From assembly GCA_011391835.1 (NCBI GenBank), contig JAABPS010000001.1, forward strand, positions 1 through 24,502: a DNA stretch of 24,502 bases, in the 5' to 3' direction. Every line of letters starts with the position of its first letter. The first letter of the stretch is position 1. The notes under the pieces are model-generated. The model saw only the letters and a program-made list of their open reading frames with translations. It had not been told where the DNA came from and ran no database searches. The DNA is from Desulfobacteraceae bacterium. GTDB taxonomy: Bacteria > Desulfobacterota > Desulfobacteria > Desulfobacterales > JAABPS01. Of this stretch, positions 1-1,775 are shown piece by piece. The position numbers and the translations under genes are program-made.

Positions 1-153
1 CTGAATAGAATTACCCAGTGGTTTGTACGGACGTTTATAGCCCGCCCCACTTATTTTCGTGCTATCGCCGATTTTGATGCCCGGATTTCTTCAAACGGGT
101 CAACAGACAAAATTTTTGGAACATGCCTCTACGAGGTCATGGGGTTTGAGTAA
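1..153 (+). CDS. 3' end of an unidentified protein (partial, runs off the left edge)
   Basis: Frame 1 is open from base 1 to TAA at 151-153 (LNRITQWFVRTFIARPTYFRAIADFDARISSNGSTDKIFGTCLYEVMGFE*). The sequence is protein-like and co-oriented with the next gene. Family not recognised. Confidence 0.55.
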   Translation: MNRITQWFVRTFIARPTYFRAIADFDARISSNGSTDKIFGTCLYEVMGFE

Positions 154-186
154 AGATGTATTATATCGATTTTTGGAGTGTATAGT

Positions 187-1032
187 ATGCCTGAAGTCCT
201 AAAATATGATGAAATAGGATATTGGTCGGAAATTAAACTCGACATTATTAAGGATTATGCTTCCGAATATTCAAGGATATTAAACAATCAGTATAATCCG
301 TCATTTTATCATATTTATATTGATGCTTTTGCTGGGGCGGGAAAACACAAATCAAAGAATACAGGGGAATTTATACCAGGCAGCCCAACCAATGCTCTAA
401 ATATTCGACCCGCTTTTAAGGAATATCATTTTATTGATTTAAATGAACAAAAAATTGAATCACTTGAAAATATTGCCGGCAATAGAAAGGATGTCTATGT
501 TCATCACGGTGATTGCAATCAGATCTTGCTTGATAAAGTTCTTCCAAAAGTAAAATATGAACAATATCGTCGTGCACTTTGTATTTTAGACCCTTATGGA
601 CTTCACCTCGATTGGAAAGTAACATCAAAAATTGGCCAAATGAATTCTATTGAGATATTTCTAAATTTTCCTGTTTATGATATTAATCGAAATGTTCTAA
701 GGAAAAGACCGAAAAGTGTATCTCCGGACCAAATCGATAGAATGAATAAATATTGGGGTGATGACTCATGGCGAGGAATTGCATATGAACAATCACCACA
801 AATGCCGCTTTTTGGCAATCCTGAAGAAGAAAAAGTTTCGAATGAAGTAATAGCTGATGCATTTAGATCACGACTAAAAAAAATAGCAGGGTTTAATAAT
901 GTTCCCAAACCTATTGCTATGAGGAATTCACAAAATGCCATTATATACTATCTCTTTTTTGCTTCTCATAAACCAGTAGCTGAAAATATTGTAACTTATA
1001 TTTTTCAAAAATATGCAAATAGAAGAGGATAA
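187..1032 (+). CDS. tcmP: Three-Cys-motif partner protein TcmP (predicted SAM-dependent methyltransferase-like fold)
   Basis: Motifs WSEIKLDII, YIDAFAGAG (SAM-binding motif I-like), GSP, HFIDLN, GDCN, LDPYG, EIFLNFP and YYLFFAS. It sits directly upstream of a DUF5131 gene, the partner that defines the family. I prefer ATG 187 (GGAG at 175-178) over the track's GTG 178. Confidence 0.9.
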   Translation: MPEVLKYDEIGYWSEIKLDIIKDYASEYSRILNNQYNPSFYHIYIDAFAGAGKHKSKNTGEFIPGSPTNALNIRPAFKEYHFIDLNEQKIESLENIAGNRKDVYVHHGDCNQILLDKVLPKVKYEQYRRALCILDPYGLHLDWKVTSKIGQMNSIEIFLNFPVYDINRNVLRKRPKSVSPDQIDRMNKYWGDDSWRGIAYEQSPQMPLFGNPEEEKVSNEVIADAFRSRLKKIAGFNNVPKPIAMRNSQNAIIYYLFFASHKPVAENIVTYIFQKYANRRG

Positions 1033-1034
1033 AA

Positions 1035-1775
1035 ATGTCCGCATCTTCTGCAATTGAATGGACTGAACACACATGGAACCCTACCACAGGCTGCACAAAA
1101 GTTTCATCTGGTTGTCGAAACTGCTATGCGGAAATTATGGCCCGCCGTTTAAAAGCAATTGGAGTAAAAGGTTATGAAAACGGATTTATACTCACTCTAC
1201 ATCCTGATCGATTAACTCAGCCATTAAACCGGAAAAAACCCACTCTTTATTTCGTAAATTCAATGAGCGATATTTTTCATGAAGATATACCTGACAGTTA
1301 TATTCATGATGTCTTCAATATAATTAAAAAAGCGCAGCAACATACTTTCCAGATATTGACAAAACGGGCAATTCGGATGTCACAGTTTCTTCAATTGAAT
1401 GGTGTGCCAGAAAATGCATGGATAGGTGTTACTGTTGAAAATAGAAGACATGGTATCCCTAGGATTGATATATTACGAAATGTAAAGGCCCCTGTACGAT
1501 TTCTATCAATGGAACCATTGCTTGAAGATTTGGGACATCTTAATTTGACAAATATTGATTGGATTATTGTAGGTGGTGAATCAGGTCCAAAAGCTCGTTT
1601 AATAAAACCCGAATGGGTAAAAAGTATTAAACAACAATGTGAAAAACATAATATTTCTTTCTTTTTTAAACAGTGGGGTTGTTGGGGTATTGACGGTAAA
1701 AAGCGTTCCAAAAAATTAAATGGGAGGTTACTGCTTGGCCGTATATGGGATAATAAGCCAGTTCCCTTTAACTAA
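1035..1775 (+). CDS. DUF5131 / phage Gp37-Gp68 family protein (radical-SAM-like Cx6Cx2C motif)
   Basis: WNPTTGCTKVSSGCRNCYAE, FVNSMSDIFH, FQILTKR, RFLSMEPLL, WIIVGGESGP and FFFKQWG. It starts 2 nt after the tcmP stop, with GAGGA upstream. Confidence 0.92.
   Translation: MSASSAIEWTEHTWNPTTGCTKVSSGCRNCYAEIMARRLKAIGVKGYENGFILTLHPDRLTQPLNRKKPTLYFVNSMSDIFHEDIPDSYIHDVFNIIKKAQQHTFQILTKRAIRMSQFLQLNGVPENAWIGVTVENRRHGIPRIDILRNVKAPVRFLSMEPLLEDLGHLNLTNIDWIIVGGESGPKARLIKPEWVKSIKQQCEKHNISFFFKQWGCWGIDGKKRSKKLNGRLLLGRIWDNKPVPFN

Follow-up and report, generated by a model that had tools for sequence, protein, structure and literature searches.

Radical S-adenosylmethionine (SAM) enzymes are known to act on DNA bases. 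The spore photoproduct lyase (SPL) SplB (PF20903/TIGR04070; PDB 4fhc) is such an enzyme and needs no methyltransferase-like partner. In phage M6, an SPL-like radical-SAM enzyme remodels a thymidine substituent in DNA (PMC8989533); this isomerase, gp53, belongs to a thymidine hypermodification pathway on a mobile genome and works together with a 5-hydroxymethyldeoxyuridine (5-hmdU) kinase, an aGPT-Pplase, and a pyridoxal phosphate (PLP) enzyme. Among methyltransferases, RlmJ (PDB 6qe0, 4blu) modifies 23S rRNA (m6A2030) as a single housekeeping enzyme. Pairs of a TcmP (three-Cys-motif partner) protein and a DUF5131 protein are represented in PADLOC by the models PDC-M41 (short TcmP) and PDC-M30 (long TcmP). 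The PDCs are predictions, 145 candidates collected by 'guilt-by-embedding', i.e., nested in BREX, DISARM, or type I restriction-modification (R-M) loci (Payne et al., bioRxiv 10.1101/2024.01.29.577857); the pair is unnamed in the main text of that preprint, and the link rests on the PADLOC models. Here, we report a tcmP–DUF5131 gene pair at the very start of a 24,502-nucleotide stretch (hereafter the window; assembly GCA_011391835.1, contig JAABPS010000001.1, bases 1-24,502) from a Desulfobacteraceae metagenome-assembled genome (MAG). A first reading of the bare sequence, the initial annotation, had described it as a stand-alone cassette and a candidate DNA-modification or anti-phage system. 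We consider the pair a horizontally acquired two-enzyme module of the PDC-M41 type, the proteins of which act jointly on nucleic-acid bases, most probably those of DNA, and we give this reading a probability of roughly one half. The module probably serves in defence or self-marking, DNA repair and RNA modification being possible alternatives.

The two genes lie on the same strand, both open reading frames (ORFs) are intact, and only 2 nt separate the tcmP stop from the DUF5131 start, just as the initial annotation had described. The features on which the comparison depends are the following.

187..1032, + strand: tcmP, ATG at 187, stop TAA at 1030-1032, 281 aa; matched by TIGR04474 and PDC-M41A, AlphaFold2 (AF2) model built
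316..342, + strand: TcmP motif I, YIDAFAGAG, residues 44-52, predicted SAM-binding loop
589..600, + strand: TcmP D135-P136-Y-G, at the end of strand E128-134; D135 and P136 present in at least 90% of homologues
1035..1775, + strand: DUF5131 (Gp37/Gp68) gene, ATG at 1035, stop at 1773-1775, 246 aa; matched by PF07505 and PDC-M41B
1092..1124, + strand: DUF5131 Cx6Cx2C, residues C20, C27, and C30, predicted [4Fe-4S] ligands
1572..1586, + strand: DUF5131 GGESG, residues 180-184, GGE-type motif; G180, G181, E182, and G184 invariant
1668..1679, + strand: DUF5131 KQWG, residues 212-215, family signature; K212, Q213, W214, and G215 all invariant

TcmP matches the NCBIfam model TIGR04474 over positions 1-262 of 263 (1e-60, 205.9 bits, cut-off 53), and the adjacent three-Cys-motif gene that goes with this family is the DUF5131 gene behind it. 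The DUF5131 protein matches PF07505 over positions 2-243 of 243 (7e-103, 343.8 bits, threshold 28.9) as well as phrog_2045 (2.2e-91). Neither family assignment could plausibly arise by chance. In PADLOC, both components of PDC-M41 are found in adjacent genes, the A model in TcmP (8.7e-74) and the B model in DUF5131 (2.3e-106); the latter protein fits PDC-M30B slightly better (6.6e-110). The defence idea put forward in the initial annotation is thus not new but already catalogued as a candidate. No Pfam family matches TcmP at E up to 0.01, sequence searches of PDB chains with both proteins gave nothing at E up to 10, and a search for recorded contigs encoding the window's TcmP returned none. 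Clustered at 50% identity, TcmP sequences form at least 3,298 clusters. Literature searches (PDC-M41/PDC-M30, PF07505, GMT-wHTH) yielded incidental mentions only, with TcmP solely in tables of two papers. The literature searched describes no reaction for TcmP or DUF5131, in line with the initial annotation.

The AF2 model of TcmP (pLDDT 96.5, pTM 0.92) was built with 60 diverse homologues, and the same alignment was used for conservation. The best solved match in Foldseek is RlmJ (6qe0, E 6.4e-9, TM 0.52, ∼15% identity), followed by Trm1 and TYW4, and the Swiss-Prot model library ranks alike. Judged from this model, TcmP is a class I SAM-methyltransferase fold with RlmJ as its best fold match. 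Motif I is placed at the end of predicted strand E41-46, and at least 90% of the homologues keep its residues Y44, D46, F48, and G52. The conserved positions run in the order D46-x-F-x-G-x-G (after strand 1), an acidic residue (after strand 2), D109-x-N111 (after strand 3), and D135-P136-[Y/F] (after strand 4); RlmJ has the same order of motif I, acidic residue after strand 2, and Asp-Pro-aromatic after strand 4. Because the motif order of the amino-methyltransferase fold is known, DPYG would occupy the motif IV position, with DP[Y/F] as the counterpart of (D/N)PP(Y/F), one proline short. Of the two motifs typical of class I amino-methyltransferases, motif I (D/E-x-x-x-G-x-G) is present and conserved in TcmP, and the putative motif IV reads DPY versus DPPY in RlmJ. 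Since the conserved residues follow this order, SAM binding and base flipping by TcmP are plausible predictions. The likeness is at the fold level only: TcmP has no sequence-model match to RlmJ or any RNA-methyltransferase family, and, unlike the single housekeeping enzyme, it is mobile and paired.

For DUF5131, model and conservation are based on 38 homologues (pLDDT 86.6), of which at least 90% keep C20, C27, and C30. By analogy with the radical-SAM GGE motif, GGESG may have a role in binding SAM. Foldseek finds an SPL first, although weakly (4fhg, E 1.7e-3, TM 0.48). VIA-align also ranks SPL first (4fhc_A, Z 12.5, rmsd 3.5, 197 residues aligned), followed by viperin (Z 11.6), SuiB (10.9), and LIAS (10.7); the top matches are mostly radical-SAM enzymes, and TYW1, MiaB, and Cfr are among the lower ones. 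The model indicates that DUF5131 is a compact radical-SAM fold (partial TIM-barrel) with non-canonical Cys spacing. RadicalSAM.org likewise holds both families in megacluster 5, DUF5131 as Megacluster-5-2 and SPL as Megacluster-5-3 (PMC9477430, the one paper of the literature searched that names DUF5131). Only the fold is alike, though: DUF5131 has no match to the SPL sequence models PF20903 and TIGR04070, is 15% identical to SplB and ∼100 residues shorter, and spaces its cysteines as Cx6Cx2C versus Cx3Cx2C. The initial annotation had suspected a methyltransferase fold next to a radical-SAM fold and had asked for profile and structure searches; these returned TIGR04474, PF07505, and PDC-M41 together with the RlmJ and SPL folds, and YIDAFAGAG, Cx6Cx2C, GGESG, and KQWG, the motifs it had picked out, all fall on invariant or nearly invariant columns. 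As a separate observation, the sole other NCBIfam model matched by DUF5131 is Radical SAM mobile pair protein A (TIGR04471, 2e-29), also a mobile, paired radical-SAM enzyme; at 102.6 bits versus a cut-off of 355, membership was rejected.

How constant the pairing is was followed in 401 sampled genomes of the window's phylum, with adjacency compared by hand from coordinates (genomes and loci are given below under our own G and L labels). Scores over the cut-off were obtained for TcmP in 56 of these genomes and for DUF5131 in 73 of them. A PF07505 gene is adjacent to tcmP on the same strand in 39 of the 56 TcmP genomes, 31 times in the order TcmP–DUF5131 and eight times in reverse; in another three, the neighbour is a weak DUF5131-like match, and the remaining 14 lack one. 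Eight of these 14 were examined. In seven, including L023 and L035, whose TcmPs are close relatives of the window's, the adjoining gene is of the SPL family (PF20903) or Radical_SAM/DUF5131-like, so that SPL-family proteins stand in for DUF5131; in the eighth (L049), an SPL-like domain is fused to TcmP in a single protein of 695 aa. Fusions of TcmP to a radical-SAM domain also occur in L047 and L048 (585 aa). A cross-phylum scan, with one genome per species, gave 46 loci from more than ten phyla, among them Desulfobacterota, Planctomycetota, Acidobacteriota, Chloroflexota, Bacteroidota, Bacillota, Nitrospirota, and Fibrobacterota, with best-segment identities of 46-81% (29% in L099). DUF5131 comes next after about 30 of the 36 TcmP genes that the crude gene caller retained, mostly with −4 to +3 nt between the two.

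What stays constant in all cases examined is TcmP together with an SPL-like radical-SAM enzyme. Because this partner is constant, we argue for joint action of TcmP and DUF5131, and a functional pair, as proposed in the initial annotation, is supported by the frequent adjacency, the translational coupling, and the fusions. The prediction of a TcmP–DUF5131 complex scored 0.00 and weighs neither way. The phyletic spread is patchy, both within the phylum and in the scattered cross-phylum loci, which speaks for mobility. The base composition of the window would fit horizontal acquisition of the pair: the GC content is 0.35-0.36 in bases 1-2000 versus 0.40-0.47 across most of the remainder. One further arrangement was seen in genome G255 (contig C26, 131213-133982, L018), where the order is TcmP–DUF5131–TcmP on the same strand.

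The initial annotation had also proposed a neighbourhood survey for defence. Close relatives (65-73% identity) do lie in defence islands, though those of L009 and L012 do not. In L002, the neighbours are a type III R-M system, HEPN/MNT pairs, and AAA_21-RloB; L003-L006 and L011 lie near CRISPR-Cas I-D or I-C, which is immediately adjacent in L003 and L011, and also have HTH-M78 regulators and PIN-MazE pairs. In L010 (7151-17609), one strand reads hsdM-hsdS-tcmP-DUF5131-darT-darG (Macro)-hsdR, then a TIR-domain gene. The pair is nested here in a type I R-M operon, with a 4-nt overlap joining hsdS to tcmP.

In the cross-phylum loci, the three gene positions that follow the pair give 100 genes in all, led by PF01555 type III/II DNA methylases (seven genes) and ResIII (five), and the PADLOC type III methyltransferase models agree. 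In L068, L074, and L075, type III res and mod flank the pair, which precedes mod-res in L056 and res-mod in L079; in L098 (Latescibacterota), it comes straight after res at a contig end, so that only res-tcmP is visible. Upstream neighbours in single cases are DrmD, BrxH, HmaA, a type I S subunit, and a type IIG enzyme. On a Leisingera plasmid, two Abi genes adjoin the pair, and a table for S. meliloti in the literature places the TcmP gene SMa2243 directly after the Hna defence gene SMa2245. Embedding in R-M loci is the very setting that defined the PDC candidate set, and in this the relatives resemble PDC-M41 and PDC-M30; the window's pair differs in that no defence system is visible around it.

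Two arrangements among these loci deserve to be recorded. The cassette res-tcmP-DUF5131-mod spans L068:7315-13548, L074:2134-9508, and L075:232-7573 (partial in L098:572-3829), in MAGs labelled Bacillota and Bryobacterales/Bryobacteraceae; it may be a composite system rather than a chance embedding. Eco57I-type methylases are found directly upstream of long TcmPs, overlapping their starts, in L047, L052, and L053. In these loci (L047:86-3888, L052:1103-5988, and L053:986-5997), Eco57I/MmeI-type methylases of 681-929 aa overlap or abut a long or fused TcmP, giving three- or two-gene units of methylase, TcmP, and radical SAM.

The initial annotation had named one genomic outcome as fatal to its idea, namely that homologues always belong to intact prophages, and this is not the case. 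Only five of 50,697 phage records contain TcmP (two Synechococcus phages, two records of Gordonia phage BaxterFox, and Gordonia phage PantheRoc), and in all five, from two phage lineages, DUF5131 is adjacent but convergent. IMG/VR contigs held only two close TcmP relatives. By contrast, 178 phage records carry DUF5131, and 173 of these lack TcmP. The BaxterFox TcmP gene comes after the immunity repressor and is positioned between it and the integrase; in temperate phages, this region is the usual site of lysogen-expressed genes. The BaxterFox DUF5131 frame is full but unannotated (L007:5984-6997; record ∼32200-32928, + strand; tblastn 7e-69), with genes 40 and 41 called over it on the opposite strand; related phages annotate DUF5131.

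We propose the following mechanism for the pair. TcmP, an RlmJ-like class I fold, would bind SAM and dock a flipped-out base at its DP[Y/F] pocket. DUF5131, as a minimal SPL-like radical-SAM enzyme, would hold a [4Fe-4S] cluster by Cx6Cx2C and cleave SAM to a 5'-deoxyadenosyl radical. This radical could then take a hydrogen atom from the base held by TcmP, or from a substituent on that base. What results would be a base with a new or altered mark, by which self is told from non-self; the pair would thereby act as a defence system in its own right or assist R-M. DNA is preferred as the target because long TcmPs (∼365-430 aa, PDC-M30 type) end in the winged-helix (wHTH) domain PF22560 (3.7e-21 in L017), which one DUF5131 homologue (P0387) also bears, because SPL acts on DNA, and because of the phage M6 enzyme. 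The likeness of DUF5131 to gp53 is by description, as an SPL-type radical-SAM enzyme in multi-enzyme DNA modification, and none of the enzymes that gp53 works with is in the window. We infer SAM and Fe-S binding, a DNA substrate, the chemistry, and an anti-phage effect; the folds, the conserved motifs, the radical-SAM pairing in the cases examined, the fusions, the mobility, and the defence and R-M contexts of relatives are observed.

Several points weigh against a joint action on DNA in defence or self-marking. The PDC systems are candidates by embedding only. The neighbour tallies have no matched control, so they are to be read as association and no enrichment is claimed; L009 and L012 have no defence gene near the pair, and the visible context of the window's own pair is housekeeping, with the upstream side absent, and gives no pointer to defence. 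The cysteines of DUF5131 are Cx6Cx2C and not the canonical Cx3Cx2C, and PF04055 is absent from its Pfam matches at E up to 0.01. The closest solved folds of TcmP (RlmJ, Trm1, TYW4) are RNA methyltransferases. Finally, the phage records with DUF5131 but no TcmP imply that the enzyme can work without this partner.

The last point, together with the fold of DUF5131, leads to a DNA-repair or damage-tolerance module as the first alternative, in which radical chemistry by DUF5131 would undo damage to a base (a cross-link, an alkylation, or an attacker-modified base) that TcmP has recognized and flipped out, the pair being mobile because it protects the DNA of its carrier element. SPL is the best structural match of DUF5131, and true SPL-family proteins replace it beside TcmP. 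A possible SOS-like lead, and only a lead, comes from G246, where the pair (contig C7, 51730-53490, L042) is located between two full-length lexA genes (39374-39985 and 57148-57780; L101, L102) that are 18 kb apart, 4 and 12 kb away from it. One of these is preceded by the perfect palindrome GTCTAC-AAAT-GTAGAC, and the region upstream of the pair matches the palindrome ahead of one lexA at nine of 12 positions. But no lexA was found in the window's MAG (69% complete) or in three related genomes (G182, G298, G151), bases 1-186 of the window are free of operator-like repeats, and the upstream regions of 31 operons contain no standard LexA box, with three relaxed TGT-N8-ACA matches only. Embedding of the R-M, DISARM, and BREX type would also be unexpected for a repair gene, and we consider a repair function unlikely. 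As a side observation, a motif TTTTGTGCA[C/T]-N4-9-T[G/A][C/T]A[C/T] is seen 40-60 nt ahead of the first gene in TcmP operons of family f55 and of G246 (L023:1424, L029:1423, two sites in L027, and L042:1401, the coordinates of L027 and L042 being on the minus strand). The partner in operons with the TTTTGTGCA motif is DUF5131 or SPL-like, and no lexA was found in f55 genomes; the motif could be a lineage-specific operator.

A second alternative takes the fold matches of TcmP literally: an rRNA or tRNA nucleotide would be the shared substrate, with TcmP methylating its base, like RlmJ or Trm1, and DUF5131 contributing a radical reaction, comparable to multi-enzyme tRNA hypermodification. The ranking of RlmJ (E 6.4e-9), Trm1, and TYW4 for TcmP and the presence of TYW1, MiaB, and Cfr among the lower matches of DUF5131 are in line with this. 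The patchy, mobile spread (56 of 401 genomes), the low GC content here, the wHTH fusions, the R-M and CRISPR surroundings of relatives, and the missing sequence-level match of TcmP to RNA-methyltransferase families all speak against it, and make an RNA target quite improbable. Similarly improbable is an inert passenger, i.e., a remnant of a phage or mobile element kept by chance and of no benefit to the host, for while the low GC content, the placement beside a contig break in an assembly of low coverage, the lack of a recognizable promoter in the 186 nt upstream, and the existence of broken copies of the pair (G360, G384) would suit it, both frames are intact with all invariant family residues, the Shine-Dalgarno sequence and the 2-nt coupling are preserved, and the closest relatives, only 72-85% identical, are intact as well, which indicates purifying selection.

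Returning to the base-modifying module, a bolder extension can be formulated, which we regard as a rather long shot. TcmP–radical-SAM modules could represent DNA-base chemistry of a new enzymatic class, operating alongside the ordinary methyltransferases of R-M systems, either by converting or extending an N6-methyladenine-type mark to a hypermodified base or by radical damage to unmarked DNA; the res-tcmP-DUF5131-mod cassettes, which recur in several phyla, would then be a composite 'radical' R-M, with the window's pair as the minimal core. Should radical chemistry allow the pair to add a modification to DNA bases or take one away, this would be a new reaction type for DNA epigenetics and phage defence, and thousands of TcmP and DUF5131 annotations would gain meaning. 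The window's copy adds little itself: it is a typical, intact member of a large, catalogued orphan family and foreign to its neighbourhood. The chief value is in the comparative picture: all cases examined have a radical-SAM partner, radical-SAM and wHTH fusions occur, and cassettes of the type res-tcmP-DUF5131-mod recur.

Two minor features are located upstream of the pair.

173..176, + strand: GGAG, Shine-Dalgarno-like, 10 nt ahead of the tcmP ATG, read from the sequence
1..153, + strand: possible 3' end of an upstream ORF, 50 codons, 5'-open at the contig start, not counted as part of the module

The longest tcmP frame starts at GTG 178. The open frame at 1-153 stops 33 nt ahead of tcmP and has no relative by tblastn in any fetched locus, and positions 1-186 show neither a promoter-like site nor an inverted or operator-like repeat. 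On the 3' side, the pair is followed by ten housekeeping genes, in order acyl-CoA synthetase, MATE, ParA-like, DnaJ-like, MFS, Hsp20, Lon, RlpA-like, HAD, and RecD2. A nuclease or helicase-nuclease partner, which an R-M system would have, is absent from these ten. The description of the pair as sitting among unrelated genes thus holds downstream, but not upstream, where only 186 nt exist, and 'stand-alone' is not supported, since the window begins at the contig edge and this status cannot be judged from there. The source MAG is from sediment and has 2.78 Mb in 551 contigs. In Logan contigs from three sediment runs, the locus is covered in pieces of 165-730 nt at a depth of 2-6, and because of this, the contig break at the window start seems due to low coverage. 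The runs listed as holding the locus include no RNA data set. In one of these runs (X2), a single 385-nt Logan contig reaches 215 nt past window base 1.

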